Shown piece by piece: positions 10,418 to 57,397 of a stretch of DNA of 64,000 nucleotides. Numbering within the stretch: the stretch's first letter is position 1; every line of letters starts with the position of its first letter. Source of the DNA: Octopus vulgaris (taxonomy: Eukaryota); NCBI GenBank assembly GCA_951406725.2, contig OX597827.1, positions 80,166,001-80,230,000 of the forward strand, written 5' to 3'. The notes under the pieces are model-generated. The model made no database searches. It was not told where the DNA came from and saw only the letters and a list, made by a program, of their open reading frames with translations. A program made the translations under genes and the position numbers.

Positions 10418-12775
10418 CTTTGTAGACTTCTGAAGTGATCTGCTCATTGTCGATGTCTTCCAGTCTTCAGGATAGTAATGGCTCCTCGAATGACCATATC
10501 TGTCTGACATCTCTCCTCGATTACCTGACATCACAGGTACACTGTTGTTACCTTGATAGATCAACTGTCTCATCTCATTGCGACATTGGTATGCCTGTTT
10601 CTCTTCTGCTGTTCTTTCAGATGAGCTATTTCTCACATTGTTACATCTCACAATACACAGGGTTATAGAAACCACAATAGCTATAGATACTATCACAGCT
10701 GCTACTACAATGATAATCAACAATGTCGCATCTATTGTGTTATCACTTGGTAGGTGCACAGCTGTGAACATTGGTGACGTCTTGTTACTAACAGTCAGTG
10801 TCAAAGACACACTAGTTGTTGCTGACAGAACTGGAGTACCACTGTCTTTCACAACAAACTCAAGCTCATATGATCCGGCATCATTTTGGTAAACTGTGCG
10901 AGAGTAAGATAACACACCAGTGAACGAATCCAGTTTAAATAACTGTCTCTCGTTACCTGAAACGATTTCGTACCTGAGAAAAGCATTCATGTGACTGTCT
11001 ATATCAGATGCTTTCAGAACTGTGATGTCGTTCTTACTTTGCGGATGATAGTGGACATTAAGAGTGAAAGGGTCAACACTAGGAAATGTAAAATATGGAG
11101 CATTATCATTTCTATCCAATACTTCCACTTCAACATTCACTGTGTTATTCAGAGATGGGCTTCCATTGTCTTTCACAAAAACCTCAAACTCATAGAAATC
11201 TCTGTGTTCTCTGTCTAAAGACTGGTTTGTTGAAATAAAGCCAGAGTTGATAATCTGGAATGGCAGACGATATTGCTGTTTATTTCTCAGAGAATAAGAC
11301 AATTCACCTCCCTTACCAATATCTGGGTCTGTAGCATTGATAAAGCCAATAGGGAAATTAGCTTTGTCATTCTCATAGGTAAGGAACTTGAATGTGTCTT
11401 TCGTAAAGTGTGGTTCTACATCATTCACATCCAACACTTGGATTGACAGATCTTTATCAGTTTTCAGAGCAGGTAATCCTTTATCTTCACACGACACAGT
11501 AAAGTGATAATGTTCCTGTGTCTCTCTGTCTACTGCTTTCTTTAGAACTATTTTATATTCCTTCGATCCCATTGACTGTAGTTTGAATGTGTCATCTTTG
11601 ATATGACAGTTCACCTGTCCATTGTGTCCAACATCGTTGTCAGTGACCATCACATAAGCAATGAAACTACCAACTTTGATGTCTTCCAGAATGGTAGCTG
11701 TGTTGTGATTCTGTGTAGAAATAAAGTTCACATCAATATTTGGGGGATTGTTCTGCTGGTTGATGACATTTACCATAACAGTTGCTATGGAACTAAGCGG
11801 AGGACTGCCATCATCTCTGGCTTCGATGTATAATTTAAAAGACTCATCCTTATCCATTTTTGAAGATGTAGCTAAATATAATTTCCCAGTCCTTTCATGT
11901 AAATTAAAGTTTCTCTTCATTTTCTCAGCAGTTTTCCTAGCAAAATAATATGATATTTTACCATTCCTGCCAATATCTAAATCAGTGGCAGATATTGTGA
12001 CTACTGGAATATTCTTTTTATGTTTATGTTCGATAGAAACATTGTAGATACTTTGGGAAAATTGTGGTGGATTATCATTTTCATCTTCCACAGATATTTT
12101 AACATTTAAAACAGACTGCTTTGGTGGAGTTCCTCCATCTTTAGCAATGACTTCAATATCATAATCGTCCTTCTTTTCTCTGTCTAATTTCTCTTCTAAA
12201 ATAATTCCTAATGTTGATATTTCATCAGTCTGTTTTGCAACTGATAATGAAAAGTGTCCATTATCTTTTTTCAATTCATAAGTAATTAAGCTGTTTTCTG
12301 GACTCATATCTTTGTCAATAGCATTAGGTATGGGTTTCTTCATACCTTTACCATCACCTTCCCCAAAAATTAGTGTGATTTCTTTCTGAGGAAACTCAGG
12401 TTGGTGGTCATTGATGTCTTCTATTATGACTTTAATCTTTAAGATCTTCATAAATGTCTTGGATTTGTGAACAGCAACTTTAACGATTTCAAAACATTCT
12501 TTCTCATAACTACACACAGACTCAGCATCCAATGTCTCAACAGTGTACAGTTTACCTGTTCTCGTCACATTGAACAATTGTTCTCCCTTTTGTTGCAGTT
12601 GACTAAATGTAATTAAATCCTTATTCTTTAAGAAGGAGCTGTCTGATTTCTGTAAGTCAGTAGCAATGTCCCCTACATAGGTATGAGGAATATTCTCTTC
12701 TTTAACATGGTATGTGATATCTTCACTTAAATAACAGTGGAAGAAAGTCAGTAAAACACAGAGAAACAGCAACAT
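10418..12775 (-). CDS. Pcdh: Protocadherin G2 large exon (SP, EC1-EC6, TM, juxtamembrane)
   Basis: 794-aa ORF with cadherin motifs (DINDHQP, LDRE, DENDNPP, DVNDVEP, DRNDNAP), EC1 C-X5-C and TM LLIIIVVAAVIVSIAIVVSITLCIV. Donor AAG|gtaagc at 10418; acceptor before 12817. Confidence 0.97.
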
Positions 12776-13424
12776 TTCTGATCTTGTCCAGGAAAACGGT
12801 GGTTTGTAAAATTAAACCTGAAACAAAAAATATGTATCTCATATCAATAAGAAATGTATGGATTTGCAAACCAAGTTTCTTTTCTTTATTTCATTCATAA
12901 AAATATTTTCAATGAAGAACAGCAATGCTACTCTTCTTAATATCATGTACAAGTGGACAAGAATTATATGACCAATTCTTAGCAAACTTAATTATGTATA
13001 TTAAGATTCAATGATTCATAGAATTTCTGAAGACTTAAAGAGTAAAAGTGGCACTTATATCCAGATAAGTACTCTCAAACAAATATTAATCTGCCTAATT
13101 TTGAAGTAAATTAACTAAAGATGAGAAACGTGAATTGTGGGCAAGATCATAATTAATATTTTGACTCTCATTTTACGATGGAATCTAACTTCGCATCAAT
13201 ATTTTTACAGGTCAAAATACAAATATTTTATGGAACTTTGAGTTATTTCCCTTAAATATGACAAACAATTTTAAGTCGAGCAATTATCAATGAAAATATG
13301 CTTAGTTATGTACTTCACGTACGCACAGGTGTGTGTGTGTGTGTGTTTATGTGTGTGTGTGTGTGCTTGTGTGGGTGCTTGTGTATATATACATTTGTGA
13401 TAATGCTATATATATATATATATA

Positions 13425-13862
13425 AAAAGCAATAAAGATTCAAGTTAATTTAAATGAATTTACTTGAATATGGTACCTAACTTGGATGCACCAAAAAAAA
13501 CTATACTGATTTAACAATACAGTAATGTGGGGTGATTATAAGCGAGAATGAAGCAACAAGAATGGATAGGTTTTTAGTACAATCGTTTCATACAAGGACA
13601 GGTTTTATTAAAAGTTGCAAAAATTACAGCATATAAACGTGTCCCGTACTCATCAGCTAAAATACATGTGAGTTCTCTAGACATCCTAGTGGTTGAGGCT
13701 ATACTCATGAGGTAATGTAGATAATTAAGTAACATAAACAGATTTCAAAAGTTCATTAAAGTTCTTTAAAGATGATGTACAGTCTTATCACAGAATTTTA
13801 AAAAAGTCTTAATAGCATCACAGAGGAGGTGACCTAATCCATAGTGCACATATGAATTTCCA
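13425..13862 (-). mobile_element. Penelope-like retroelement fragment inserted in G2 intron 1
   Basis: ~440-bp segment absent from the otherwise near-identical G3 intron 1. Sits in a TA run and contains a minimal type I hammerhead motif characteristic of Penelope-like elements. Confidence 0.6.
13572..13662 (-). ncRNA. Minimal type I hammerhead ribozyme motif
   Basis: Minus strand: UUUUAG-CUGAUGA-GUACGGGACA...UGUCCUUGUAU-GAAA-C-GAUU-GUA-CUAAAA. Stem I UUUUAG/CUAAAA pairs perfectly, stem II pairs, and the conserved core boxes are intact. Confidence 0.75.
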
Positions 13863-15545: not shown

Positions 15546-15590
<45 letters not shown>

Positions 15591-16840: not shown

Positions 16841-16962
16841 TTAACTGACAACAACATCTGGTGTTGAAGGTAACTGTCTCTCTGGAGGTTTCACATATCT
16901 GTCTTGGTAATGGTCTCTCTCACTGGTGCTTGATACATCGGGTGGGGCACCACCATAGATTC
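16841..16962 (-). CDS. Pcdh: Protocadherin G3 terminal coding exon
   Basis: tgtttcag acceptor; (G)IYGGAPP...RQLPSTPDVVVS*. Confidence 0.88.
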
Positions 16963-17301
16963 CTGAAACATATATATCAATGGGTATTCAACGAATGACT
17001 TTAGTCAACAGTTCCTTCTTTTATATTAAGTGCTCTACAAAATAACTATTATGAAGGGATTAATACCTCACTATACGATTAGACCTATACAATCTTGAGC
17101 ATATTACGTGACAATTAACTAATAAATAAAAAGAGATTTACTCTTTTAATTTATAAATTTAATTCATAGTGATAAAACTATTAGAAATAACATTTTGGAA
17201 GTCCTCAAAATCCTAGTGTTTGTTTAGACTTCAATCCCAGAGAGATCAATGGGATAAATGATAAACACACCAAATAACATAGGTAAATGTGAATGTTTTA
17301 C

Positions 17302-17455
17302 CTGCCATTGCTGGTATTTCTTCATACTGTCTGCTTGACCGCTCACTCCAGCACTGTCCACTGCTCTTACGACTGGCCAGTGTGTCAGTGGGATAGTGAG
17401 AAGATGGTCTGTTGTCTCCATAAGATGTCACCTCAATCGGTTGACTGTATTTCTG
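17302..17455 (-). CDS. Pcdh: Protocadherin G3 cytoplasmic exon (154 nt)
   Basis: aacag|CAG...GCAG|gtaaaa; matches ORF-track peptide TSYGDNRPSS...YEEIPAMAG. Confidence 0.9.
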
Positions 17456-19054: not shown

Positions 19055-21415
19055 CTTTGTAGACTTCTGAAGTGTCCGACTCATTGTTGACGTCTTCCAA
19101 TCTTCAGGATAGTAATGGCTTCTCGAATGACCATATCTGTCTGACATCTCTCCTCGATTACCTGACATCACAGGTACACTGTTGTTACCTTGATAGATCA
19201 ACTGTCTCATCTCATTGCGACATTGGTATGCCTGTTTCTCTTCTGCTGTTCTTTCAGATGAGCTATTTCTCACATTATTACATCTCACAATACACAGGGT
19301 TATAGAAACCACAATAGCTATAGATACTATCACAGCTGCTACTACAATGATAATCAACAATGTTGCATCTATTGTGTTATCACTTGGTAGGTGCACAGCT
19401 GTGAACATTGGTGACGTCTTGTTACTAACAGTCAGTGTCAAAGACACACTAGTTGTTGCTGACAGAACTGGAGTACCACTGTCTTTCACAACAAACTCAA
19501 GCTCATATGATCCGGCATCATTTTGGTAAACTGTGCGAGAGTAAGATAACACACCAGTGAACGAGTCCAGTTTAAATAACTGTCTCTCGTTACCTGAAAC
19601 GATTTCATACCTGAGAAAAGCATTCATGTGACTGTCTATATCAGATGCTTTCAGAACTGTGATGTCGTTCTTACTTTGCGGATGATAGTGGACATTAAGA
19701 GTGAAAGGGTCAACACTAGGAAATGTAAAATATGGAGCATTATCATTTCTATCCAATACTTCCACTTCAACATTCACTGTGTTATTCAGAGATGGGCTTC
19801 CATTGTCTTTCACAAAAACCTCAAACTCATAGAAATCTCTGTGTTCTCTGTCTAAAGACTGGTTTGTTGAAATAAAGCCAGAGTTGATAATCTGGAATGG
19901 CAGACGATATTGCTGTTTATTTCTCAGAGAATAAGACAATTCACCTCCCTTACCAATATCTGGGTCTGTAGCATTGATAAAGCCAATAGGGAAATTAGCT
20001 TTGTCATTCTCATAGGTAAGGAACTTGAATGTGTCTTTCGTAAAGTGTGGTTCTACATCATTCACATCCAACACTTGGATTGACAGATCTTTATCAGTTT
20101 TCAGAGCAGGTAATCCTTTATCTTCACACGACACAGTAAAGTGATAATGTTCCTGTGTCTCTCTGTCTACTGCTTTCTTTAGAACTATTTTATATTCCTT
20201 CGATCCCATTGATTGTAGTTTGAATGTGTCATCTTTGATATGACAGTTCACCTGTCCATTGTGTCCAACATCATTGTCAGTGACCATCACATAAGCAATG
20301 AAACTACCAACTTTGATGTCTTCCAGAATGGTGGCTGTGTTGTGATTCTGTGTAGAAATAAAGTTCACATCAATATTTGGGGGATTGTTGTGTTGGTTGA
20401 TGACATTTACCATAACGGTTGCTATGGAACTCAGAGGAGGAATTCCATTATCTTTAGCTTCAATATATAATTTTAAAGAATTTTTGGTGTCAACCTCTAA
20501 AGATTTTATTAAGAATATTTTCCCAGAGTTTTCATCAATATTAAAATACTGTTTCATTTGCATATCAGTCTTCGGACTGAAATAGAAAGATATTTTACCA
20601 TTCCTGCCAATATCTAAATCACTGGCAGATAATGTGACTACTGGAATATTCTTTTTATGTTTATGTTCTATAGAGACATTGTAGATACTTTGAGAAAACT
20701 GTGGTCTGTTGTCATTTTCGTCTTTTACAGATATTTTAACATTTAACACAGATTGTTTTGGTGGAGTTCCCCCATCTTTAGCAATGACTTCAACATTGTA
20801 ACTGTCTTTCGTTTCTCTGTCTAATTTCTTTTCTAAAATAATTTCTATTGATGATATTCCATCTGCACGTTTGACAACATGTAAAGAAAAGTGGCTTCTA
20901 TCATCTTTTCTCAGTTCATATGTAATTAAACTATTTTTATTACCCATATCTTTATCAACAGCATTGGGTATTGATAGTTTTGATCCTTTACTATCTCTCT
21001 CTGAAAACTGAATGTTGACTTCTTCAGTTGGAAACTCAGGTTGGTGGTCATTGATGTCTTCTATTATGACTTTAATCTTTAAGATCTTCATAAATGTCTT
21101 CGATTTGTGAACAGCAACTTTAACGATTTCAAAACATTCTTTCTCATAACTACACACAGACTCAGCATCCAATGTCTCAACAGTGTACAGTTTACCTGTT
21201 CTCGTCACATTGAACAATTGTTCTCCCTTTTGTTGGAGTTGACTAAATGTAATCAAATCCTTATTCTTTAAGAAGGAGCTGTCTGATTTCTGTAAGTCAG
21301 TAGCAATGTCCCCTACATAGGTATGAGGAATATTCTCTTCTTTAACATGGTATGTGATATCTTCACTTAAATAACAGTGGAAGAAAGTCAGTAAAACACA
21401 GAGAAACAGCAACAT
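19055..21415 (-). CDS. Pcdh: Protocadherin G3 large exon
   Basis: 801-aa ORF with six cadherin repeats and TM. Donor AAG|gtaagc at 19055; acceptor before 21471. Confidence 0.97.
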
Positions 21416-25080: not shown

Positions 25081-25202
25081 TTAACTGACAACAACATCTG
25101 GTGTTGAAGGTAACTGTCTCTCTGGAGGTTTCACATATCTGTCTTGGTAATGGTCTCTCTCACTGGTGCTTGATACATCGGGTGGGGCACCACCATAGAT
25201 TC
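25081..25202 (-). CDS. Pcdh: Protocadherin G4 terminal coding exon
   Basis: Intact copy, ends DVVVS*. Confidence 0.82.
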
Positions 25203-25541
25203 CTGAAACATATATATCAATGGGTATTCAACGATTGACTTTAGTCAACAGTTCCTTCTTTTATATTAAGTGCTCTACAAAATAACTATTATAAAGAGAT
25301 TAATACCTCACTATACGATTAGACCTATACAATCTTGAGCATATTACGTGACAATTAACTAATAAATAAAAATAGATTTACACTTTTAATTTATAAATTT
25401 AATTCATAGTGATAAAACTATTAGAAATAACATTTTCGAAGTCCTCAAAATCCTAGTGTTTGTTTAGACTTCACTCCCAGATATATCAATGGGATAAATG
25501 ATAAACACACCAAATAACATAGGTAAATGTGAATGTTTTAC

Positions 25542-25695
25542 CTGACATTGCTGGTATTTCTTCATACTGTCTGCTTGACCGCTCACTCCAGCACTGTCCA
25601 CTGCTCTTACGACTGGTCAATGTGTCAGTGGGATAGTTAGAAGATGGTCTGTTGTCTCCATAAGATGTTACTTCAATGGGTTGACTGTATTTCTG
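25542..25695 (-). CDS. Pcdh: Protocadherin G4 cytoplasmic exon (154 nt)
   Basis: Intact splice sites and open frame. Confidence 0.82.
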
Positions 25696-27354
25696 CTGTT
25701 AGAGAAAACAAAAAACAACAATGACTTGATTTGTCCAAGAAAAACATTTGGGAATTCTGGATGCTTACTGTTGTGGAGTGTAAAGGTTAGGGTCTGTGGT
25801 TAGTGTGAGATATGGGAGAGGAGACCATGGTAAAAGTTTTGAGACTGGAATGAGTTTTCAGCAAGCTATTCATAGAAAGAGTCCATGGCAGTGGTAAGAG
25901 AAGAAGAAATGAGAAGGAACATCTCAGACGCAGAAGTTAGTGCATTGCTTAGTGAGTATTCACTGATCACTGAAAGAAAAATTGTTTGAAAATTTTCAAG
26001 TCAACACTAACATGCAGAAGGTAGCTAAGAGATTTTAGATAATTATAACTACACATCTATTGACGAGAAGAAATAAGTGCCATAATGATAAATTATTGCC
26101 AAGAAAGAAGGATACCTCATGAAATATTAACTATTTAACATTAATTAAAAATCAAGGATGTTTGTGTGTGAAGTAGCAGTGATCACATTTCAGCTTTATA
26201 GAAGGTCAAGGCAGGTGAGATCATTAGATTCGAGGATTTTGATAAAAACTTCACACAAACAAAATTCAAGAAGCTTCTATTCAACCTAAAACACTCACAA
26301 AATATTCTTTGTTTCCTTACAAGTAGTAGTAGTCTTAGATCCATTATTTTTAGAAAAAGAACAGGATAGCCACAATCTATACGTTCATGTTTCCAGTTAT
26401 GTTGCATCTCCATATATTGATGGACCATATCACTTTGACTCTGCTTTTCTACTTTCACTTACAGAAGCCTCGACTCTCAGAGGTCCCACCCTGGGCGACT
26501 CATCTTACTCATCTCTTCTCCTCTAGTCAATCGTATTGCCAGCCTTTCTGCACCCTACAACGACCACTTAATCTTTCTGCCTCAGAACATCTTCCCCACT
26601 GAAATTTACTCTATTCCCATACTTCTCCAGCTGTTTTATACTAGTAATTACTCAAGAGAATAAGCTACATTAACCTCAATTGTGAGGGTCAAGGACACAG
26701 GCCCCACATCGGGACCAAACCCTTATGCAACAGAAAAAAAAACTTGTATATTAATATGCTAGTGTAATGATTTATTTAAATATTGAATGTTGTTACAGTC
26801 AAATAATAATAAAATATTGCAGACATTTGGTGTAGATGAGCAACATAACATACCAGAAATAACAATTTCTACTCTTAACTCATAATTCTAAAAGAGTACA
26901 AAATAAACTAAAACTAAATTCTGAATTAGAAGCAGCTCTAATACTATAAACATAATTCAGGTCACAAACTTAATAAGTGTGTTTTGTTTGAAGAGTTACA
27001 AGTCACAGGATTTCATCCATGGAAAGTTTCTTTAAGACATACGTTGAAGAACACTGAATACTTCAAAACCAAACAAAACAGATGAAATACACAATTGATA
27101 ATGTTATACAAACATTGTTTGATAATAATTATGGAAATAATATCTAAAACTATATTTATGAAAATATAAAGATTACACTAAAAGTATAAATGAAGTTGTT
27201 CTCCAGAGGAGATTTAAGAGAATACCGAAATAGAAGATTAATAGATATTTTCATGCTTTCTGGCAAACTTCAATTCACTGTCGGTGTCTTTTATTCAAAT
27301 AGTTCTTAATTAAACATTAACTACTAACAAACACTCAATCCAAATATATCTTAC

Positions 27355-29750
27355 CTTTGTAGACTTCTGAAGTGATCTGCTCATTGTCGATGTCTTCCAG
27401 TCTTCAGGATAGTAATGGCTCCTCGAATGACCATATCTATCTGACATCTCTCCTCGATTACCTGACATCACAGGTACACTGTTGTTACCTTGATAGATCA
27501 ACTGTCTCATCTCATTGCGACATTGGTATGCCTGTTTCTCTTCTGCTGTTCTTTCAGATGAGCTATTTCTCACATTGTTACATCTCACAATACACAGGGT
27601 TATAGAAACCACAATAGCTATAGATACTATCACAGCTGCTACTACAATGATAATCAACAATGTCGCATCTATTGTGTTATCACTTGGTAGGTGCACAGCT
27701 GTGAACATTGGTGACGTCTTGTTACTAACAGTCAGTGTCAAAGACACACTAGTTGTTGCTGACAGAACTGGAGTACCACTGTCTTTCACAACAAACTCAA
27801 GCTCATATGATCCGGCATCATTTTGGTAAACTGTGCGAGAGTAAGATAACACACCAGTGAACGAATCCAGTTTAAATAACTGTCTCTCGTTACCTGAAAC
27901 GATTTCATACCTGAGAAAAGCATTCATGTGACTGTCTATATCAGATGCTTTCAGAACTGTGATGTCGTTCTTACTTTGCGGATGATAGTGGACATTAAGA
28001 GTGAAAGGGTCAACACTAGGAAATGTAAAATATGGAGCATTATCATTTCTATCCAATACTTCCACTTCAACATTCACTGTGTTATTCAGAGATGGGCTTC
28101 CATTGTCTTTCACAAAAACCTCAAACTCATAGAAATCTCTGTGTTCTCTGTCTAAAGACTGGTTTGTTGAAATAAAGCCAGAGTTGATAATCTGGAATGG
28201 CAGACGATATTGCTGTTTATTTCTCAGAGAATAAGACAATTCACCTCCCTTACCAATATCTGGGTCTGTAGCATTGATAAAGCCAATAGGGAAATTAGCT
28301 TTGTCATTCTCATAGGTAAGGAACTTGAATGTGTCTTTCGTAAAGTGTGGTTCTACATCATTCACATCCAACACTTGGATTGACAGATCTTTATCAGTTT
28401 TCAGAGCAGGTAATCCTTTATCTTCACACGACACAGTAAAGTGATAATGTTCCTGTGTCTCTCGATCTACTGCTTTCTTTAGAACTATTTTATATTCCTT
28501 CGATCCCATTGACTGTAGTTTGAATGTGTCATCTTTGATATGACAGTTCACCTCTCCATTGTGTCCAACATCATTGTCAGTGACCATCACATAAGCAATG
28601 AAACTACCAACTTTGATGTCTTCCAGAATGGTAGCTGTGTTGTGATTCTGTGTAGAAATAAAGTTACATCAATATTTGGGGGATTGTTGTGTTCATTGAT
28701 GACATTTATTTGAATGATTGCCAGGGAACTGAGAGGGGAAATACCATTATCCCTGGCTTCCACATATAATTTAAAATTCTCTTCTTTTCCAAATTCTATT
28801 GATTTAGCTAAATATAACACTCCTGTATTTTCATTCAAGTGAAAATATTTTCTCATCTTCACATCAGTTTTCTGACTGAAATAGAAAGATATTTTACCAT
28901 TCCTGCCAATGTCTAAATCACTGGCAGATAATGTGACTACTGGAATATTCTTTTTATGTTTATGTTCAATAGAGACATTGTAGATACTTTGAGAAAATTG
29001 TGGTTTATTATCATTTTCATCTTCCACAGATATTTTAACATTTAAAACAGATTCTTTTGGTGGAGTTCCTCCATCTTTAGCAATGACTTCAATATTGTAA
29101 CTGTCCTTCTTTTCTCTGTCTAATTTCTCTTCTAAAATAATTTCTAAAGTTGATATTTCATCAGCTATTTTTGATTGGGATAAGGAAAAATGTCCATCAC
29201 CATGTAATACATATTTGATTAAACTGTTCTGATATCCAACATCCTTATCAACTGCATTAGGTATAGCCTTCTTCATACCTTTACCATCACTTTCCCTAAA
29301 ATGTAGAGTAATTTCTTTCTCAGGAAACTCAGGTTGGTGGTCATTGATGTCTTCTATTATGACTTTAATCTTTAAGATCTTCATAAATGTCTTGGATTTG
29401 TGAACAGCAACTTTAACGATTTCAAAACATTCTTTCTCATAACTACACACAGACTCAGCATCCAATGTCTCAACAGTGTACAGTTTACCTGTTCTCGTCA
29501 CATTGAACAACTGTTCTCCCTTTTGTTGCAGTTGACTAAATGTAATTGAATCCTTATTCTTTAAGGAGCTGTCTGATTTCTGTAGGTCAGTAGCTATGTC
29601 CCCTACATAAGTGTAGGAATTCTTCTCTTCTTCAACATGATATGAGATATCTTCACTTGAATAACAATGAGAAAAAGTCAATAAAATACAGAGACACAAC
29701 AGCATCTCTGGTCGTGATGTCCAGGAATTTGGTAGATTCACATTATTAAT
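27355..29750 (-). pseudogene. Pcdh: Protocadherin G4 large exon with a 1-bp frameshift (pseudogene, null allele or assembly error)
   Basis: Split into 384-aa and 426-aa ORFs. Plus strand reads aagttacatc at 28661-28670 where all paralogs have aagttcacatc. Signal-peptide ATG at 29705, acceptor before 29750, donor at 27355. Confidence 0.85.
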
Positions 29751-30525
29751 CTGTAAAATAAATAGATAGCTTGTAGTGGGAAGAAATAAAAAATATTTTG
29801 TGAAAGACTATTTTAGTAATGAATAAATAATCTCCTTCTTATAAGAAAACATACCAAAAGTAGGACTGAAGTAAAGTATCCCAGGGGGAACTTACTGCTC
29901 ACTAAATATACATTGTCTGCCATATATTTTATGGCAAGTTGAAGATCTTTACTTATCTGGAATTGTTTTTGCAATAATAATGAGAAGGCAATAATTTGGA
30001 CAATTAATTCATATGATTTAACAGGTTCTTCTCATAAGTCAGATAACTTGAGACTACTTAAACAGCCCAGTTTCTTATTCTAATAATTTATTGTAATTAA
30101 TCTTATAAAACATTGTTCAAAGTGACATTCATTATAAAACTGCTCCAATTTACCAAACTTCATAAAGATAATAACCACCACATTCCCATACTCTCAAAGT
30201 ATTAAAAAAAAATTTTACAAGTTGCTGACACTTGAATATAGACATTACAGCCTAATGGGAAAATAATGTTTCCTTCTGTTATACAGCCTAAATTGAGTTC
30301 GCTCCCTTGAACAGGATTACCACCAGCAAACGAAATTATTTTGCATTGAGTTTCTCTTATTTTTTTGATCCCCGAATGAAAATGTAAATATATGTAAAAT
30401 AATTATCGGTAACGCTTTTCTGCAAATAACTCAATGTAATTCACAAGAACACAGTAGAATACATAAGTGGGCAAGAGTGTATTTGTGCATGTGTGCAATA
30501 AATTCAATGTTGTTCTGTTGTTAAC

Positions 30526-31414
30526 TTATACCTTAATTACTGATAAACTATATTTGTTGATGTGACATTGTTTAAAAAATATTAGTATACTACAAATAAT
30601 GTAATAGTCAGGAAACCATTGTGAGACATGGAAAGGGTAAAGTTTAAGGCAGGAATATGTGGTGACAACAATTCTGCTAGAACAGAAGAGATGAAAAACA
30701 AAATATAAATTCAAACCACAGACAAGTTGTCTGACGGTTATAATGGCACCAAAGATGGACATCTGGTCATCATTTACAAAACACTATGATAATATTAAGA
30801 AGCAGATATTCCAGAAAAGAGAAGATATAAACTAGAAGCTATTTAAATGACAAATTTAGAAAAGTCATTTAGTGAAATGAAGTTATGGATACCAAACAAA
30901 TATTCACTTTTCAACCATAAAATTAAATCATTATCAATCAATATGGCCTTTTTATATTACAATATCTATCATTCAGTTCCAGTTATATTGCAATAACATA
31001 GTAATGGCAAGGATAATATCATCATCATCCTCATCATCATCATCGTTTATAACGTCCATCTTCCATTCTAGCACGGGTGGGACGGTATCACAAGAGCCTG
31101 CACCAGACTTCTGTGACTGTTTAGGCAGAATTTTTACAGCTGGATGCCCTTCCTAACATCAACCACTTGTAATTTTTTTGGAAGTTACATTCTACACTAA
31201 TTCCTGATAAAACTATATTTAATGATGTGACATATTCCTGTCTTAACCTTTACCTGTTCCATGTCCCAATGCTACATGACATTGATGCTTCTGTCTGACA
31301 ATGCTTTTTCATGGATGTAACATTATGTCATCATCATCTATATGTGTTGTATACTAATATTTTTTAAACAATGTCATGTCAACAAATATGGTTCTACAAG
31401 TAATTAGTGTATAA
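30526..31414. repeat. Inverted repeat pair (~75-bp arms; possible MITE ends) in G4 intron 1
   Basis: 30526-30598 (…atatttgttgatgtgacattgtttaaaaaatattagtatac) is the reverse complement of 31341-31414. A partial third copy lies near 31193-31233. Confidence 0.7.
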
Positions 31415-31649
31415 TATAACTTCACAAAAAATTACAAGTGACTATTTTTTTTAAATTTTGTAAAACAACTCTACACTAAATTAATAGAGGACATGATTGA
31501 GATGACATTTTTTAAAATATTCGATTATGATGAATATCATACCAATAATTTTTTAGGTTTCACACATCAAGTATGGTTCAATAGCTTAGAAAGAATCCTA
31601 GGTAGATGAATTTTAAATTTATAAATGGAAGGACTAATAATCTTTACTA

Positions 31650-31857
31650 TTGTAGGCACAAGGTCTGAAATATGGGGATAGGGAGCTAGTCATTTACATC
31701 AACCCCAGTGTTCAAGTGGCAGTTGTATAACTGACCCCAAAAAGATGAAGGGTAATGTTGGCCTTGGTGGAATTTGAACTCAGAATGTAAAGACAGCCAA
31801 AATGCCACAAAGCATTTCATCTGGCATGCTAATGATTCAGCCAGTTCCCTGCCTTAA
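31650..31857 (-). mobile_element. Octopus-type tRNA-derived SINE
   Basis: Same family as 7585-7797 (ctgagttcaaattccaccaagg...). Confidence 0.7.
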
Positions 31858-32334
31858 ATGAAAGAAGTAATAATGAAAGAAGACGAGATATACAGAAATT
31901 AACCAATTAATGTATTTAGACTCACAAACACACACACACTTAAACATCACAAAACACATAAAAATACATACAACAATATCGATATCAATTTTTATTCATA
32001 CTTTTCTTTCTTGTAACTACACAGTCAAATGTTAGTTTTATAATATATTTTATTATATTATTACTATAATTTCATAACATATGTAAATAGTCTGTCACTG
32101 AGATATTTCAGAGAAATTCCTATAAAATGTCTGTATCAATTTATCAATATACAATCATTTAGAAGAAACTAGATAAGAATAAGGAAACAAGTACATGAAA
32201 ACCTGGGAACATTAAAAATATATTATATTGAAATAATGGACATTATATTCCTAAACAGTTTTTCTTTTCCTAGAGCTGTTCTCAAAATATTCAACAGCCA
32301 ACGTCTGAAAAGAAGACATTCAATATGAACTGAC

Positions 32335-33390: not shown

Positions 33391-33512
33391 TTAACTGACA
33401 ACAACATCTGGTGTTGAAGGTAACTGTCTCTCTGGAGGTTTCACATATCTGTCTTGGTAATGGTCTCTCTCACTGGTGCTTGATACATCGGGTGGGGCAC
33501 CACCATAGATTC
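33391..33512 (-). CDS. Pcdh: Protocadherin G5 terminal coding exon
   Basis: Intact copy, ends DVVVS*. Confidence 0.88.
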
Positions 33513-35664: not shown

Positions 35665-38067
35665 CTTTGTAGACTTTTGAAGACTTCTGCTCATTGTCGA
35701 TGTCTTCCAGTCTTCAGGATAGTAATGGCTTCTCGAATGACCATATCTGTCTGACATCTCTCCTCGATTACCTGACATCACAGGTACACTGTTGTTACCT
35801 TGATAGATCAACTGTCTCATCTCATTGCGACATTGGTATGCCTGTTTCTCTTCTGCTGTTCTTTCAGATGAGCTATTTCTCACATTGTTACATCTCACAA
35901 TACACAGGGTTATAGAAACCACAATAGCTATAGATACTATCACAGCTGCTACTACAATGATAATCAACAATGTCGCATCTATTGTGTTATCACTTGGTAG
36001 GTGCACAGCTGTGAACATTGGTGACGTCTTGTTACTAACAGTCAGTGTCAAAGACACACTAGTTGTTGCCGACAGAACTGGAGTACCACTGTCTTTCACA
36101 ACAAACTCAAGCTCATATGATCCGGCATCATTTTGGTAAACTGTGCGAGAGTAAGATAACACACCAGTGAACGAATCCAGTTTAAATAACTGTCTCTCGT
36201 TACCTGAAACGATTTCATACCTGAGAAAAGCATTCATGTGACTGTCTATATCAGATGCTTTCAGAACTGTGATGTCGTTCTTACTTTGCGGATGATAGTG
36301 GACATTAAGAGTGAAAGGGTCAACACTAGGAAATGTAAAATATGGAGCATTATCATTTCTATCCAATACTTCCACTTCAACATTCACTGTGTTATTCAGA
36401 GATGGGCTTCCATTGTCTTTCACAAAAACCTCAAACTCATAGAAATCTCTGTGTTCTCTGTCTAAAGACTGGTTTGTTGAAATAAAGCCAGAGTTGATAA
36501 TCTGGAATGGCAGACGATATTGCTGTTTATTTCTCAGAGAATAAGACAATTCACCTCCCTTACCAATATCTGGGTCTGTAGCATTGATAAAGCCAATAGG
36601 GAAATTAGCTTTGTCATTCTCATAGGTAAGGAACTTGAATGTGTCTTTCGTAAAGTGTGGTTCTACATCATTCACATCCAACACTTGGATTGACAGATCT
36701 TTATCAGTTTTCAGAGCAGGTAATCCTTTATCTTCACACGACACAGTAAAGTGATAATGTTCCTGTGTCTCTCTGTCTACTGCTTTCTTTAGAACTATTT
36801 TATATTCCTTCGATCCCATTGACTGTAGTTTGAATGTGTCGTCTTTGATATGACAGTTCACCTGTCCATTGTGTCCAACATCATTGTCAGTGACCATCAC
36901 ATAAGCAATGAAACTACCAACTTTGATGTCTTCCAGAATGGTAGCTGTGTTGTGATTCTGTGTAGAAATAAAGTTCACATCAATATTTGGAGGATTGTTG
37001 TGTTCATTGATAACATTTATCTGAATTATTGCTACGGAGCTCAGTGGAGGACTGCCATCATCTCTGGCTTCAATGTATAATTTTAAAGACTCTTCTTTAT
37101 CAATTTCTGAAGATGTAGCTAAATATAATTTCCCAGTATTTTCATCTAAATTAAAATGTCTCTTCATTTTCTCAGCAGTTTTCCTGGCAAAGTAATATGA
37201 TATTTTACCATTCCTGCCAATATCTAAATCACTGGCAGATAATGTGACTACTGGAATATTCTTTTTATGTTTATGTTCAATGGAGACATTGTAAATACTT
37301 TGAGAAAACAGAGGTGTATTATCATTTTGATCTTGTACAGATATTTTAACATTTAAAACAGATTGTTTTGGTGGAGATCCTCCATCTTTGGCAATGACCT
37401 GAATACTATAACTATCTTTCTTTTCTCTATCTAATTTCTCTTCTAAAATAATTCCCAATGTTAATATTCCATTAGTATGTTTGGCAACTACTAAAGAGAA
37501 ATACTGATTATCCTTTTTTAATTCATATGTAATTAAACTGTTCTCATATCCCACATCTTTATCAATAGCATTTTCTATTGATCTCTTCGTGCCTTTGCCA
37601 TCTGTTTCAGAAAATTGAATATTGACTTCTTCAGTTGGAAACTCAGGTTGGTGGTCATTGATGTCTTCTATTATGACTTTAATCTTTAAGATCTTCATAA
37701 ATGTCTTGGATTTGTGAACAGCAACTTTAACGATTTCAAAACATTCTTTCTCATAACTACACACAGACTCAGCATCCAATGTCTCAACAGTGTACAGTTT
37801 ACCTGTTCTCGTCACATTGAACAATTGTTCCCCTTTTTGTTGTAGTTGACTAAATGTAATTAAATCCTTATTCTTTAGGAAGGAACTGTCTGATTTCTGT
37901 AGGTCAGTAGCAATGTCCCCTACATAGGTATAGGGACTATTCTCTTCTTCAACATGGTATGTGATATCTTCACTTAGGGAAAAGTGAAAGAAAGTCAGTA
38001 ATACATACAGACATAACATTTCTGTTCTTGACAGTATCCAGGGATAAGGAGAACACAATTTGTTCAT
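35665..38067 (-). CDS. Pcdh: Protocadherin G5 large exon
   Basis: 818-aa ORF. Acceptor ttttgtttcag before 38067 (exon begins ATG AAC AAA), signal-peptide Met at 38019, donor at 35665. Confidence 0.97.
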
Positions 38068-38164: not shown

Positions 38165-38480
38165 ATCATTTAACATCCACATTTCATGTTGGTATAGATT
38201 GGGTGACTTGACAGTAGGTGGCAAGGCAGAAGACTGCACCAAGCTGAACCATCTGCTCTGACATAGTTCCAATAGCTAGATGCCCTTCCTAACACCAACC
38301 ATTTTAGAGCATACTGGGTGGTTCTTAGATGTCACCAAGTACCCAGTAAGACAAGACCCCTCAACTGAGTTGGAGAAGTAGTATTGATGGAAGTGGCTTT
38401 GTTCCATGTGGTGAGAGGTTAGAGAATGACAGAGGGACAAAAACAGGTGTCTTACAGTAGAGGAAGTACATGTCAACTTT
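38165..38480 (-). mobile_element. RTE-tail SINE/LINE remnant
   Basis: catttaacatccacatttcatgttgg...gatgcccttcctaacaccaacc motif, shared with fragments at 7.9, 31.0 and 59.7 kb. Confidence 0.55.
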
Positions 38481-40978: not shown

Positions 40979-41100
40979 TTAACTGACAACAACATCTGGT
41001 GTTGAAGGTAACTGTCTCTCTGGAGGTTTCACATATCTGTCTTGGTAATGGTCTCTCTCACTGGTGCTTGATACATCGGGTGGGGCACCACCATAGATTC
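40979..41100 (-). CDS. Pcdh: Protocadherin G6 terminal coding exon
   Basis: Intact copy, ends DVVVS*. Confidence 0.88.
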
Positions 41101-41239
41101 CTGAAACACACATATCAAATAAACTTACTACATAGTTCATACAGACAATAGGTATTCTATGACATTAGTAACAAATCTCTTTTTGTTACAATAATTTGAT
41201 TAAGCTATAAAATAACAATTAACAAAGAAAAGTTTACTA

Positions 41240-41665: not shown

Positions 41666-42147
41666 ACTGTCCCTAAGATCCTTTCAGATCATAATCAGAT
41701 CAGTGACCCAATAATTATATGCAGGATCAGAGTGAATGAATACACTGATTACTCCCAGCCATTCTTGTATGATGTGAGCAGCCATGTATCTCCTCTGCAG
41801 CAAGAAATCTGTTTCACTGTCTTCCCTCATATGCTCACCTTTCACCACTGAGCGTAGAGCTGCCTTCACCTCTTCTGTGGGCTCACTCAGTCAATGGGAA
41901 CCTTAGTCTTGCAAGCTACATGGAAACCTCACTGGTGCCAAAAAAAGGCATCCAATACACATTGCAAAGCGAGTGGCAATAGGAAGGGCATTCAAACAAG
42001 AAGATGATAACAAGGATTACAAGAGTGATGATGCTAATGATGATCAATAATGAAAAAGTATTTCAGAATAGTTAAAATTAGATATTCTAGAAATAAAATT
42101 ATAATAAAATTAATGACGAACAAGAATGAATGAGATTGTTATCCTAC

Positions 42148-42301
42148 CTGACATTGCTGGTATTTCTTCATACTGTCTACTTGACCGCTCACTCCAGCAC
42201 TGTCCACTACTCTTACGACTGGTCAATGTGTCAGTGGGATAGTTAGAAGATGGTCTGCTGTCTCCATAAGATGTCACCTCAATGGGTTGACTGTATTTCT
42301 G
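42148..42301 (-). CDS. Pcdh: Protocadherin G6 cytoplasmic exon (154 nt)
   Basis: ctaacag|CAG...TCAG|gtagga; open frame with YEEI. Confidence 0.9.
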
Positions 42302-42534: not shown

Positions 42535-44889
42535 CTTCATACTTTTTGGTAAACTTCTGCTCATTGTTGATGTCTTCCAGTCTTCAGGATAGTAATGGCT
42601 CCTCGAATGACCATATCTGTCTGACATCTCTCCTCGATTACCTGACATCACAGGTACACTGTTGTTACCTTGATAGATCAACTGTCTCATCTCATTGCGA
42701 CATTGGTATGCCTGTTTCTCTTCTGCTGTTCTTTCAGATGAGCTATTTCTCACATTGTTACATCTCACAATACACAGGGTTATAGAAACCACAATAGCTA
42801 TAGATACTATCACAGCTGCTACTACAATGATAATCAACAATGTCGCATCTATTGTGTTATCACTTGGTAGGTGCACAGCTGTGAACATTGGTGACGTCTT
42901 GTTACTAACAGTCAGTGTCAAAGACACACTAGTTGTTGCTGACAGAACTGGAGTACCACTGTCTTTCACAACAAACTCAAGCTCATATGATCCGGCATCA
43001 TTTTGGTAAACTGTGCGAGAGTAAGATAACACACCAGTGAACGAGTCCAGTTTAAATAACTGTCTCTCGTTACCTGAAACGATTTCATACCTGAGAAAAG
43101 CATTCATGTGACTGTCTATATCAGATGCTTTCAGAACTGTGATGTCGTTCTTACTTTGCGGATGATAGTGGACATTAAGAGTGAAAGGGTCAACACTAGG
43201 AAATGTAAAATATGGAGCATTATCATTTCTATCCAATACTTCCACTTCAACATTCACTGTGTTATTCAGAGATGGGCTTCCATTGTCTTTCACAAAAACC
43301 TCAAACTCATAGAAATCTCTGTGTTCTCTGTCTAAAGACTGGTTTGTTGAAATAAAGCCAGAGTTGATAATCTGGAATGGCAGACGATATTGCTGTTTAT
43401 TTCTCAGAGAATAAGACAATTCACCTCCCTTACCAATATCTGGGTCTGTAGCATTGATAAAGCCAATAGGGAAATTAGCTTTGTCATTCTCATAGGTAAG
43501 GAACTTGAATGTGTCTTTCGTAAAGTGTGGTTCTACATCATTCACATCCAACACTTGGATTGACAGATCTTTATCAGTTTTCAGAGCAGGTAATCCTTTA
43601 TCTTCACACGACACAGTAAAGTGATAATGTTCCTGTGTCTCTCTGTCTACTGCTTTCTTTAGAACTATTTTATATTCCTTCGATCCCATTGACTGTAGTT
43701 TGAATGTGTCGTCTTTGATATGACAGTTCACCTGTCCATTGTGTCCAACATCATTGTCAGTGACCATCACATAAGCAATGAAACTACCAACTTTGATGTC
43801 TTCCAGAATGGTAGCTGTGTTGTGATTCTGTGTAGAAATAAAGTTCACATCAATATTTGGAGGATTGTTGTGTTGGTTGATAACATTTATCTGAATTATT
43901 GCAATGGAACTGAGAGGAGGAATTCCATTATCTTTGGCTTTCACATATAATTTTAAAATATCTTCCTTACCACTTCCTAAAGATTTTGATAAAAATAACT
44001 TTCCAGTATCTTCTTCCAACATGAAATTTTTCCTCGTTTGTTCAGCTGTTTTTCTACTAAAATAGAAAGATATTTTACCATTCCTGCCAATGTCTAAATC
44101 ACTGGCAGATAATGTGACTACTGGAATATTCTTTTTATGTTTATGTTCAATAGAGACATTGTAGATACTTTGAGAAAATTGTGGTTTATTATCATTTTCA
44201 TCTTTTACAGATATTTTCACATTTAAAACAGATTGTTTTGGTGGAGTTCCTCCATCTTTAGCAATGACTTCAATATTGTAGTTGTCTTTTTTTTCTCTAT
44301 CTAATTTCTCTTCTAAAATAATTGTTAAGGTTGATAATCCATCAGCTTGTTTAGAGACAAATAATGAAAAAAGATTTGTATGACCATGTAACTCATATCT
44401 AATTAAACTATTTTGATAACCTATATCTTTGTCAATAGCATTAGGTACAGGATTTTTTTTTCCTTTCCCATATTCTTCTTCAAATTGTATATTAATTTCT
44501 TTCTGAGGAAACTCAGGTTGGTGGTCATTGATGTCTTCTATTATGACTTTAATCTTTAAGATCTTCATAAATGTCTTGGATTTGTGAACAGCAACTTTAA
44601 CGATTTCAAAACATTCTTTCTCATAACTACACACAGACTCAGCATCCAATGTCTCAACAGTGTACAGTTTACCTGTTCTCGTCACATTGAACAACTGTTC
44701 TCCCTTTTGTTGCAGTTGACTAAATGTAATTAAATCCTTATTCTTTAAGAAGGAGCTGTCTGATTTCTGTAAGTCAGTAGCAATGTCCCCTACATAGGTA
44801 TAGGGACTATTCTCTTCTTCAACATGGTATGTGATATCTTCACTTGCATAACAGTCAAAGAGAGTCAGTAAAACATATAGCAATAACAT
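42535..44889 (-). CDS. Pcdh: Protocadherin G6 large exon
   Basis: 792-aa ORF. Donor AAG|gtatgt at 42535; acceptor ttttctgtttcag before 44937. Confidence 0.97.
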
Positions 44890-50307: not shown

Positions 50308-50429
50308 TTAACTGACAACAACATCTGATGTTGAAGGTAACTGTCTCTCTGGAGGTTTCACATATCTGTCTTGGTAATGGTCTCTCTCACTGGTGCTTGA
50401 TACATCGGGTGGGGCACCACCATAGATTC
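50308..50429 (-). CDS. Pcdh: Protocadherin G7 terminal coding exon
   Basis: Intact; ends RQLPSTSDVVVS* (P>S relative to paralogs). Confidence 0.88.
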
Positions 50430-51599
50430 CTGAAACACACACATATATCAACTACATTTATCACACAGTTTATATAATAAATAGGTATTTACTGATGTTA
50501 GTAATCAATTCCTAGTCTGCTACAATGACTGGGCTATAATATAAAATAAAGATCAAGTTTTAAGTGTCCTTATCTAAGAAGCTTATTTCAATTAAATGCA
50601 CACCATATCGTTTCCTAATACAGTTCTGCTCTATTTGTTCCAAACACACTAGAAACCACACTACAATTACATATTTATTCAGATGAACAACTAATTGTGT
50701 ATGTTTTCCCAAAGGAAATGGAACCTGTGGAAAAGAGAGAGAGAAAGATACAAGAAAGGTGAAATGGTGAAGACAGATCAGAAACTATAACACACCACAG
50801 AGACGATGACAAAGGCCTGCAGTGACCAGTTACACAGTGTGAGAGAAGATCTGCTTTCTCATCTAGGCGTGGCAAAACGCACTAAAACAATGTTAGCTAT
50901 ATTTGTATACATACACACATGTATCATTAAACATATGTATATGTATGTGTACACATCTGCTTACTGATAAGTCTCTTTGATAGTCTCTCACCCAATATTA
51001 CTCACTTTCTTTGTCACTCACACCTCTGTCTCTCATCCCTTGCATTACACTTCTCTATAACTCATCAGTCTACTGTCACCCATATCTCTTTCACCCTAGC
51101 TTCCTGCATCATGCCCCTAATGTTCATCTCTTAATCACTTCCTCTTCTTCTTCTCAATCTCCCAATCTCACTATACTATGCACTCAGTGTGACTGACGAT
51201 AGCAGCACACCTCTTCTGTTCATCACATATTGCACTCTCCCCTCTATGCTTTTATTTTTCATCTTCTTTTCACCATACATTGCACTCTTTCACCCATGCC
51301 TATTGCTATCTTTCAACCATTCACTCCTCTTCCCAATGTGAGTGAGGATAGCAGTATATTCCTTCACTTTGCTGTACATGGCTTCCATTGTAACTACAGA
51401 CATCACTGCACCTATTCTGACTCTGCCCCAAACATTCCTTTGTGCCATTCACAGAACCCACCTGTTTTCCATTTCCTCTGACACCATTCTGATCATTTGA
51501 CACTTTTGGTTGGTCTTTTAGCCAATGTATACGAAGACTAATTGAACCATTCATACCCAGTTCACTCTACCTTCACCTTCACCTCTTTTACTTCCTGCT

Positions 51600-52235: not shown

Positions 52236-52736
52236 CCTATCTCAGAATACAAAGCACTGCTACCACATCACCTGTTATCAGACATCCTTCATATCACTAT
52301 CATTTAAGCCTCTGACTCATGCTTCTCGTTCTGTGAAGTGGCTGGTGAGGTTGAAGAAATAGCTACTTCTTTAGGGATGGTATCATAAAAAGTATACCCC
52401 GTACACTTTGTGAAGGGCATAACACCTCTCTAGTGCTGGTGGCACAAAAAAGGCACCCAGTACATTCTGTAAAGTGGTTAGTGTTATGAAGGGCATCCAG
52501 CCAAGAATGAAATGCAAGTGTGATAAAGTAACCCTACCCATCTAGGTTGGCAGCATATCTATATTTGTGCTGACTTCCATCATGATAACATAGCAAAAGC
52601 AACTTTTAACATCTCCTAAAGATGATTCATGTTGCTTAAAGCATTAGTAAATTAGAGATTTAGAGCTGATTAATCTCTCAAGTAAAAACTATGAACAGAA
52701 TTAATGACAAAACATGAATAAATGAAATTGTTTTAC

Positions 52737-52890
52737 CTGACATTGCTGGTATTTCTTCATACTGTCTACTTGACCGCTCACTCCAGCACTGTCCACTGCT
52801 CTTACGACTGGTCAGTGTGTCAGTAGGATAGTTGGAAGATGGTCTGTTGTCTCCATAAGATGTCACCTCTATTGGTTGGCTGTATTTCTG
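52737..52890 (-). CDS. Pcdh: Protocadherin G7 cytoplasmic exon (154 nt)
   Basis: ttttaaag|CAG...TCAG|gtaaaa; matches ORF-track peptide. Confidence 0.88.
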
Positions 52891-54892: not shown

Positions 54893-55036
54893 CATGTTAG
54901 ATGTTCCTGGTAGAATCTTCTCAGATTATCATTTGCCATCAAATAACTTACAAGTAACTGTAAAATATAAAACATTCAGCTAAAACATTCTCAGTTGAAC
55001 ATAATTTAATAGTTTATTCATTGAAATAAAGCTTAC

Positions 55037-57397
55037 CTTTGTGGACTTTTGAAGACTTCTGCTCATTGTCGATGTCTTCCAGTCTTCAGGATAGTAATGG
55101 CTCCTCGAATGACCATATCTCTCTGACATCTCTCCTCGATTACCTGACATCACAGGTACACTGTTGTTACCTTGATAGATCAACTGTCTCATCTCATTGC
55201 GACATTGGTATGCCTGTTTCTCTTCTGCTGTTCTTTCAGATGAGCTATTTCTCACATTGTTACATCTCACAATACACAGGGTTATAGAAACCACAATAGC
55301 TATAGATACTATCACAGCTGCTACTACAATGATAATCAACAATGTCGCATCTATTGTGTTATCACTTGGTAGGTGCACAGCTGTGAACATTGGTGACGTC
55401 TTGTTACTAACAGTCAGTGTCAAAGACACACTAGTTGTTGCTGACAGAACTGGAGTACCACTGTCTTTCACAACAAACTCAAGCTCATATGATCCGGCAT
55501 CATTTTGGTAAACTGTGCGAGAGTAAGATAACACACCAGTGAACGAATCCAGTTTAAATAACTGTCTCTCGTTACCTGAAACGATTTCATACCTGAGAAA
55601 AGCATTCATGTGACTGTCTATATCAGATGCTTTCAGAACTGTGATGTCGTTCTTACTTTGCGGATGATAGTGGACATTAAGAGTGAAAGGGTCAACACTA
55701 GGAAATGTAAAATATGGAGCATTATCATTTCTATCCAATACTTCCACTTCAACATTCACTGTGTTATTCAGAGATGGGCTTCCATTGTCTTTCACAAAAA
55801 CCTCAAACTCATAGAAATCTCTGTGTTCTCTGTCTAAAGACTGGTTTGTTGAAATAAAGCCAGAGTTGATAATCTGGAATGGCAGACGATATTGCTGTTT
55901 ATTTCTCAGAGAATAAGACAATTCACCTCCCTTACCAATATCTGGGTCTGTAGCATTGATAAAGCCAATAGGGAAATTAGCTTTGTCATTCTCATAGGTA
56001 AGGAACTTGAATGTGTCTTTCGTAAAGTGTGGTTCTACATCATTCACATCCAACACTTGGATTGACAGATCTTTATCAGTTTTCAGAGCAGGTAATCCTT
56101 TATCTTCACACGACACAGTAAAGTGATAATGTTCCTGTGTCTCTCTGTCTACTGCTTTCTTTAGAACTATTTTATATTCCTTCGATCCCATTGACTGTAG
56201 TTTGAATGTGTCATCTTTGATATGACACTTCACCTCTCCATTGTGTCCAACATCGTTGTCAGTGACCATCACATAAGCAATGAAACTACCAACTTTGATG
56301 TCTTCCAGAATGGTAGCTGTGTTGTGATTCTGTGTAGAAATAAAGTTCACATCAATATTTGGAGGATTGTTGTGTTGGTTGATGACATTTACCATAACCG
56401 TTGCTATGGAACTGAGAGGAGGGTTGCCCCCATCTCTGGCTTCAATGTATAATGTATAAACTTCATTGTCAATGATAGCATCAATTTTATCAATCAAAAA
56501 TATCTCACCACTTTTCTTAACGAGTCTAAAATGTTTGCTATCAAGATCTGACGTTTTGGGACTAAAATAATAATTTATTTTCCCATTATTGCCAATATCG
56601 GAATCTGTAGCAGACAAAGTGACAACAGGTACATCATTTTGAAAATAACTTTTTATGGTAACATTATAAATATTCTGTGAGAATACTGGTAAGTTATCAT
56701 TCTCATCTTCTACTAATATTTTCACATCTAATACACTCTTTTTAGAAGGGGAACCTCCATCTTCAGCCTCAACTTGTACACTGTACATATCTTTCACTTC
56801 TCTATTTAATTTACTTTCTAGAACAATCTCTAGTCGAGATATTCCATCAGCTCTTTTAGAAACTAACAATGAAAACATTTCTTCATTGTTCTTTAAATGA
56901 TAATTAATTACACTATTTAAAACTCCAACATCTTTGTCAATGGCATTTGGAATGGACTTTTTCATTCCTTCTCTGTCTCCTTCTCTGAACTGTAAAGTTA
57001 TTTCTTTCTCTGGAAACTCAGGTTGGTGGTCATTGATGTCTTCTATAACTACTTTAATTTTCAAGATTTTCAAGAAGTTTTTTCCTTTGTGAACAGCAAC
57101 TTTCACAGTTTTATAACATTCTGTATTATATCTACATAGCGACTCAGCATCCACTGTCCGAACCGTGTACAGTTTCCCTGACTGGGTGACATTGAATAAT
57201 TTTGTCTCCTTTTGTTGGAGTTGATTAAATGTAATCTGACTGAGATCTTCTTTGTCCAGGAGCCACTTTTGTGAATTAGCAGTGATGTCCCCCACATAGC
57301 TTTTGGGACTATTTTCTTCTTTTAAACGAACTGTAATGTCTATACATGCCCCAGGGAGGAGGAAAGATATTATTACCATCAGAATTAGTAATGTCAT
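55037..57397 (-). CDS. Pcdh: Protocadherin G7 large exon (divergent SP/EC1-EC3, shared EC4 onward)
   Basis: 805-aa ORF. Donor AAG|gtaagc at 55037; acceptor ttttctttccag before 57438. Confidence 0.97.

Follow-up and report, generated by a model that had tools for sequence, protein, structure and literature searches.

Mosaic EC2-EC3 segments among tandem protocadherin genes of Octopus vulgaris

The window analysed here is a stretch of 64,000 nucleotides from Octopus vulgaris (assembly GCA_951406725.2, contig OX597827.1, our contig C14 of a 2.8-Gb genome, positions 80166001-80230000). It contains seven tandem minus-strand protocadherin genes, G1-G7, each with six EC domains. We found that the EC2-EC3 regions of these genes and of their close paralogs are mutual mosaics, in which germline gene conversion, together with unequal crossing-over, has probably (about 78%) reassorted an old set of variants. 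The germline mosaic itself is real and well supported. It joins a known family to a known process, in a place where the vertebrate literature calls that process rare.

The window lies within an array that comprises at least 26 close paralogs at 79.94-80.26 Mb (304 kb around the window and 15 other loci were searched), which we named U18-U01, G1-G7 and D1. Fourteen of them (U07-U01, G1-G6, D1) form subfamily A, and residues are numbered as in G5. The genes have the architecture of protocadherins: Pfam PF08266 (N-terminal Cadherin_2) and five PF00028 stretches were found in G2 and G7, together with a transmembrane segment (TM) and a tail, and the best PDB matches are protocadherins. Their closest proteins carry Octopus and Argonauta names. 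Besides a single large exon, every gene has downstream exons of its own (24 copies of exon 2 in the 304 kb). These are head-to-tail full-gene duplicates with octopod nearest relatives, as in cephalopod clustered protocadherins. Twenty-three of the 26 large exons are free of frameshifts, and G4, U10 and U01 are frameshifted in the assembly. The features in the window, with the five segments S1-S5 into which EC2-EC3 was divided, are as follows (all on the minus strand).

1-1989, minus: G1 large first exon, truncated at the edge of the window; EC2-EC3 at 949-1605
10418-12775, minus: G2 large exon, encoding the signal peptide, EC1-6, the TM and some of the tail; EC2-EC3 at 11735-12391
About 9632-9787 and 8290-8418, minus: G2 exons 2 and 3
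19055-21415, minus: G3 large exon; EC2-EC3 at 20372-21031; downstream exons at ~17300-17455 and ~16844-16969
27355-29705, minus: G4 large exon; EC2-EC3 at 28671-29324; downstream exons at ~25540-25695 and ~25084-25209
35665-38019, minus: G5 large exon (reference for residue numbers); downstream exons at ~33850-34005 and ~33394-33519
37546-37638, minus: G5 S1 (EC2 start, aa 128-158), S-type variant common to G3, U03, U05 and U07
37405-37545, minus: G5 S2 (aa 159-205), containing the variable hairpin, aa 180-187
37198-37404, minus: G5 S3 (aa 206-274), two conserved islands at the EC2-EC3 junction
37066-37197, minus: G5 S4 (EC3 core, aa 275-318), variant common to G2 and U02-U06
36982-37065, minus: G5 S5 (EC3 end, aa 319-346), AIIQ variant common to G4 and G6
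35665-36981, minus: G5 copy of the homogenised EC4-EC6, TM and tail, near-identical throughout the array
42535-44889, minus: G6 large exon; EC2-EC3 at 43852-44508; downstream exons at ~42146-42301 and ~40982-41110
55037-57397, minus: G7 large exon, divergent in EC1-EC3; EC2-EC3 at 56354-57013
About 52735-52890 and 50335-50439, minus: G7 own exons
56789-57103, minus: G7 bracketed tract common to U10 (aa 98-202)

The domains of these genes differ greatly in divergence. Among G1-G6 it is 0-1% in EC4-EC6, 3% in EC1 and about 20% in EC2-EC3, and for the 14 genes of subfamily A the mean nucleotide p-distance was 0.027 in EC1, 0.195 in EC2, 0.171 in EC3, 0.009 in EC4 and 0.000 in EC5. Synonymous divergence (dS; 13 genes, without D1) has the same domain pattern (EC1 0.07, EC2 0.60, EC3 0.46, EC4 0.03, EC5 0.00), and thus the identity of EC1 and EC4-EC6 reflects homogenisation, not protein constraint alone. 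The GC content of third codon positions (GC3) is 0.35-0.38 in the homogenised domains versus 0.19-0.27 in EC2-EC3. Homogenisation restricted to certain domains and sparing EC2-EC3, which is characteristic of vertebrate clustered protocadherins, is therefore present in the octopus array. Physical distance predicted divergence in S5 only (p = 0.008; one of seven segments). In public runs, the contigs covering EC4-5 had a summed depth roughly 26-36 times as high as those of the upstream flank, although such depth is not equal to copy number.

The initial annotation described EC2-EC3 as a patchwork of segments shared between paralogs. Every motif that it quoted was found in the genes named, and the sharing exceeds chance by the pairwise homoplasy index (PHI) and the incongruence length difference (ILD) test. 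G3 and G5 have a common EC2 start, as do G1 and G2 (4/33 nucleotides differ in each pair); DEISTL..KKD is common to G2 and G4 (2/57), and KDNG..SIA to G3 and G6 (3/39). The EC3 stretch common to G2 and G5 differs at 17/165 nucleotides, versus 41-72/165 for the other 20 pairs. The AIIQ form of the EC3 end occurs in G4, G5 and G6, with 1/27 nucleotides differing between G5 and G6. All these tracts hold their own accumulated differences. The motif at the EC2 start of G4 and G7 is present, but 24/93 nucleotides and 13/23 same-residue codons differ, so this match is old and does not represent a recent transfer. With respect to the S-type EC2 start and the L-type EC3 core, the window genes show all four combinations: G5 has both, G3 and G2 have one each, and G1, G4 and G6 have neither. 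Some sharers are non-adjacent, as had been claimed (for example, G2 and G5), but others are neighbours (G4/G5/G6 and G1/G2). The conserved islands are found in G1-G6 (4-20/207 nucleotides differ) but not in G7 (66-67/207).

The cleanest common tract is that of G7 and U10, two genes ~150 kb apart. Over aa 98-202 they differ at 7/312 nucleotides, versus 101/234 and 134/345 in the coding sequence on either side (about 40%), and the same-residue codons that differ number 6/101 inside the tract versus 18/36 and 31/59 outside. The pair thus shows the signature of a gene-conversion mosaic, that is, a tract with common synonymous states between divergent flanks. G2 and U05 have a tract with 5/144 nucleotides differing and divergent sequence on both sides. 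For both pairs, the gene flanks and first introns are unrelated.

Larger pieces are chimeric as well. The 1.95 kb upstream of G2 and G3 are 95% identical and only 3/381 nucleotides differ through EC1, yet 36/93 differ in S1. G3 is a composite, with an upstream region like that of G2 (95%), an EC2 start like that of U03/U05 and introns 96% like those of G4/G5. Intron 1 is 96-99% identical among G3, G4 and G5, and intron 1 of G1 is that of U10 at 95%. These chimeric kilobase flanks and introns indicate that long tracts or unequal crossovers act besides short tracts. The short-tract exchange proposed at first is therefore one process, seen in the short bracketed tracts, but not the sole one. Introns 1 and 2 of G3, G4 and G5 (25084-35665 for G4/G5) were both observed to be 96-99% identical, versus about 20% divergence in EC2-EC3.

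A single-tree history was then tested on the seven window genes and on subfamily A. In the seven genes, PHI gave p = 0.0005, and the exact ILD was 32 versus 16.0 ± 3.4 (p = 0.0002), with segments drawn by eye after viewing the alignment. Triplet tests passed Bonferroni correction in 16/210 cases, the eight best of which all include G7. In the 14 genes, synonymous PHI gave p = 0.001 and 0.005 at window 100 and p = 0.0005 and 0.064 at window 50, and synonymous ILD was 34 versus 23.5 ± 3.5, above all 117 permutations. As a null set, 200 alignments of the 14 genes were simulated under a codon model on the single best tree. None of the 200 reached the observed triplet mean runs Z, either for all codons (−1.44) or for synonymous codons (−0.33). 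S1 contains 11 perfectly diagnostic bases (three silent) within 63 bases (about 20 codons), versus a simulated maximum of six. A copying model yielded 141 donor switches, versus 78 ± 7 in 25 single-tree simulations. In approximately unbiased (AU) tests, each segment rejected the trees of the other four, where own trees were fitted to own data, and S2 did not reject the whole-region tree (p = 0.11). The same mosaic signal was found in 12 genes of a second subcluster (from the 14 loci L026-L039; Z = −1.06) and in 20 Argonauta units (Z = −1.07). A GENECONV-like permutation gave many hits and was not relied on, because the conserved islands confound it.

A single tree is therefore rejected for subfamily A, and the G7 tract adds to this. 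The initial annotation had suggested that recombination between paralogs builds new EC2/EC3 combinations, and would have given this up for one tree with no synonymous excess; neither subfamily A nor the G7 tract fits that description. Its further suggestion that exchange is anchored on the two islands was not borne out, since donor switches are no denser there (~1-7 per 10 codons versus 5-13 in the variable parts), and the islands carry little signal.

To see how the variants are combined elsewhere, EC2-EC3 units were taken from predicted proteins, several of which are fused models. After exact duplicates and five orthologs of U08, U09, U10 or G7 were dropped, 61 units were kept: 14 from the window genome, 22 from a second octopus set (some named Octopus sinensis, others on small contigs), 5 named O. 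bimaculoides and 20 named Argonauta hians. Motif classes were set by eye, and related units are not independent. All four sets contain the same variants of S1, hairpin and EC3 core. These are combined in 30 ways, and 15 of the combinations recur in two or more sets. S1 varies almost independently of the hairpin (p = 0.10) and the EC3 core (p = 0.048), whereas the hairpin and the core are tightly coupled (mutual information 1.05 versus 0.29, p = 0.0003) despite the islands between them. The idea of combinatorial diversity thus applies to the EC2 start, which reassorts almost freely, but the hairpin type tracks the core type across the four sets and shuffling is not freely combinatorial. For instance, P0157 has a G4-type EC3 with a G5-type S1 (1 versus 13 differences), and the G3-type EC3 was found with all five S1 classes.

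Eight ortholog pairs were anchored by gene order, and a doubtful D1 pair was left out. Residue differences between them were 25/248 in S1, 13/376 in S2, 13/552 in S3, 7/351 in S4 and 13/224 in S5 (p = 1e-6), or 10%, 3.5%, 2.4%, 2.0% and 5.8%. Of the 71 foreign residues in these pairs, 59 are present in another paralog of the window genome. S1 is the most freely swapped piece and S4 the most stable lineage marker across species. Other octopus assemblies and Argonauta have these same variants in new pairings, and the exchange is therefore both old and a germline process. The S1 variants SETDGKGTK.S and REGDG.GMKKS were also seen in the second subcluster (L029, L031, L028; about 59% protein identity). 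L029 and U07 differ at 10/57 nucleotides in the S1 motif and at 47/141 in S2, which may reflect an old transfer or a retained variant.

The turnover between positional orthologs is highest beside EC1 (S1) and beside EC4 (S5). This pattern may be explained if germline tracts originate in EC1 and EC4, where the copies are nearly identical, and run over into the adjoining parts, the EC2 start and the EC3 end. Such tracts would rarely reach the hairpin and the EC3 core, and these would consequently stay coupled.

Several points weigh against reassortment between paralogs, or limit what may be built on it. In the seven window genes, with 26-45 informative sites, synonymous-only PHI (p about 0.5) and ILD (p = 0.82) were null; only 1/210 synonymous triplets passed Bonferroni correction there, and 0/2184 in the 14-gene set. 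One synonymous statistic, the fraction of strong triplets, was reached by 2/200 simulations. Segments and motif classes were defined post hoc, pooled units are non-independent, the other species were compared as protein only, and one haplotype does not separate conversion from double crossover. The association of S1 with S4 is weak but not nil (p = 0.048). As for adaptive diversification, the ratio of nonsynonymous to synonymous divergence (dN/dS) is 0.25 in EC2 and 0.28 in EC3, and 0.14-0.34 per segment; no positive selection was seen in EC2-EC3 by this pairwise counting, and the dN/dS above 1 typical of recognition loci such as those of the major histocompatibility complex (MHC) was not found.

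The null synonymous tests and the synonymously diverged G4/G7 match would suit one gene tree with parallel amino-acid changes and uneven rates. However, the observed clustering, which no single-tree simulation reached, with synonymous codons included, and the silent diagnostic bases in S1 are hard to obtain in this way, and the bracketed G7/U10 tract refutes one tree for the subfamily; we give this explanation very little credence. Whole-gene birth and death by unequal crossing-over alone, without short conversion tracts, would account for the chimeric kilobase flanks and introns and for the unit order in fused models, which varies between species mid-array. It is nevertheless improbable, because the 315-base G7/U10 and 144-base G2/U05 tracts are bracketed between unrelated surroundings and the AIIQ tract is only 27 bases long. 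Misassembly of near-identical repeats could also produce chimeras: the array is highly repetitive, and 0/20 runs contained half of the G5 EC2-EC3 words (best 0.49). But a 312-base contig of run X1 covers G5 EC2 (37361-37672) with two letters differing, P0124 from another assembly carries the full S1-S2-S4-S5 class combination of G5, and the common tracts bear their own accumulated differences, so that an artefact is scarcely credible.

Chicken immunoglobulin gene conversion is a programmed somatic cassette exchange, and a similar process in octopus neurons might be imagined. Nothing beyond the modular look speaks for it; the tracts are aged and common across species, and the donors, instead of forming a silent archive, are complete genes that have downstream exons themselves, and we consider it highly unlikely. 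It is also possible, though we doubt it, that the mosaic is a neutral by-product of a repetitive array, in which new combinations are irrelevant to recognition. The dN/dS well below 1 in every segment and the 3/26 genes frameshifted in the assembly agree with this, and the spill-over gradient alone accounts for both the freedom of S1 and the coupling of S2-S4. However, EC2-EC3 are about 20% divergent between blocks of 0-3%, and variants that persist from Argonauta to Octopus are hard to understand under free homogenisation. In addition, the variable segments align with vertebrate specificity residues given in the part of PMC5106212 that we used.

Germline reassortment between paralogs can be compared with known systems. 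Like the octopus genes, vertebrate clustered protocadherins (teleost Pcdh2 alpha/gamma, mammalian Pcdh alpha) are tandem large exons with six EC domains and a TM. Vertebrate alpha and gamma variable exons splice to shared constant exons; in contrast, each octopus gene has a separate exon 2 and exon 3. Vertebrate clustered protocadherins also form strictly homophilic, antiparallel trans dimers through EC1-EC4, and their promoters are chosen stochastically by way of CTCF and cohesin. The sections consulted of PMC1852091, PMC4978886, PMC2764143 and PMC3966226 report domain-restricted homogenisation, raised GC3 and divergent EC2-EC3 that are seldom or not converted. In those sections, vertebrate EC2/EC3 conversion is judged mainly by dS or identity, whereas octopus EC2-EC3 are internally mosaic. 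As a vertebrate control, 21 teleost units gave Z = −0.25 (permutations 0.02 ± 0.10; fused models from many species) and eight same-species sets of 4-6 units gave Z from −0.70 to +0.52. This control is weak and neither comparison is like for like, so the octopus-vertebrate contrast may be partly one of method. The EC2 start of the teleost units carries either an ESVA.GT or an ENAA.GT motif, changing from one to the other among species and paralogs, a hint that fish may undergo similar swapping.

In coleoids, protocadherin arrays have been described as head-to-tail full-gene duplicates on one chromosome, and homogenisation by gene conversion has already been suggested (excerpts of PMC9068888 and PMC6339937). 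These excerpts treat whole-gene similarity, without a domain map, sub-domain mosaic or cross-species motif reassortment; those of PMC13218726 and PMC10084454 contain nothing further on conversion in cephalopod arrays. No report of sub-domain mosaicism in cephalopod EC2-EC3 was found, in a search that covered the subscription literature thinly, and the supplements of the original papers on vertebrate conversion and on the octopus genome may already map domains. MHC exchange is mostly allelic and under balancing selection, whereas octopus exchange is between paralogs with dN/dS near 0.25. Long-lived motif variants are known from the MHC too. In class I and II genes, short conversion segments moved across backgrounds yield new recognition surfaces, according to the passages of PMC3966226 used here.

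Vertebrate work has identified the specificity pairs 111:294, 125:253 and 128:257 (PMC5106212, as excerpted) and the EC2 beta4-beta5 loop as a specificity element (bioRxiv 10.1101/493106, likewise in part). By hand reading of gamma-B4 and gamma-A9 alignments, these sites map to about G5 135:323, 149:279, 150:282 and 181-187, which lie in S1, S5, S4 and the hairpin. If vertebrate structures are a guide, the EC2:EC3 recognition surface would be made of these segments. Swaps would then give rise to new binding specificities, and EC2-EC3 would be protected from homogenisation by selection against identical isoforms. A predicted G5 EC1-EC4 homodimer, modelled without an alignment, scored 0.01 and weighs neither way. 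More speculatively, EC2-EC3 could be an ancient library of interface modules, in which the EC2 start is a freely swappable unit of specificity and the hairpin and EC3 core are selected to match across the trans dimer; germline shuffling would then mint neuronal recognition codes, and the repertoires of individuals would differ in an MHC-like manner. We hold this only tentatively and think it rather unlikely. If true, such a library would generate wiring diversity in a different way from vertebrate promoter choice and Dscam splicing.

The separation of homogenised (EC1, EC4-6) from diverse (EC2-3) domains is a convergence with vertebrates, to which the mosaic adds a way of generating diversity within the domains that probably determine specificity. 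Exact modules (S1, hairpin, EC3 core, AIIQ end) are marked by the natural chimeras, which makes it directly testable whether cephalopod protocadherins encode self-recognition. Whole-gene trees and one-to-one orthology calls are unreliable in such arrays.

Some minor observations were made in the same sequence. In G4, a 1-base deletion near 28,667 (28657-28682), at the start of EC4, shifts the frame, and it may indicate a pseudogene or an assembly error. L002 (G000:C14:79979668-79979922) is an isolated fragment matching the TM and tail only (aa 690-774, 94%). A contig of run X1, which is RNA by guess, shows coding A as G at 36560, 36561 and 36588 (G5 EC5; K487, I478). At these positions G occurs in no member of the 26-paralog set; three other runs lack two of the sites, and an X5 contig contains one. 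They are candidate sites of adenosine-to-inosine (A-to-I) recoding. Allelic polymorphism in the public runs was read from short contigs of unmatched individuals, with variant letters that were placed by depth and may be paralogous. Finally, a very high-copy repeat at 38204-38345, ~200-300 bases upstream of the G5 start, shows extreme contig depth and many loose ends, and is likely a short mobile element.

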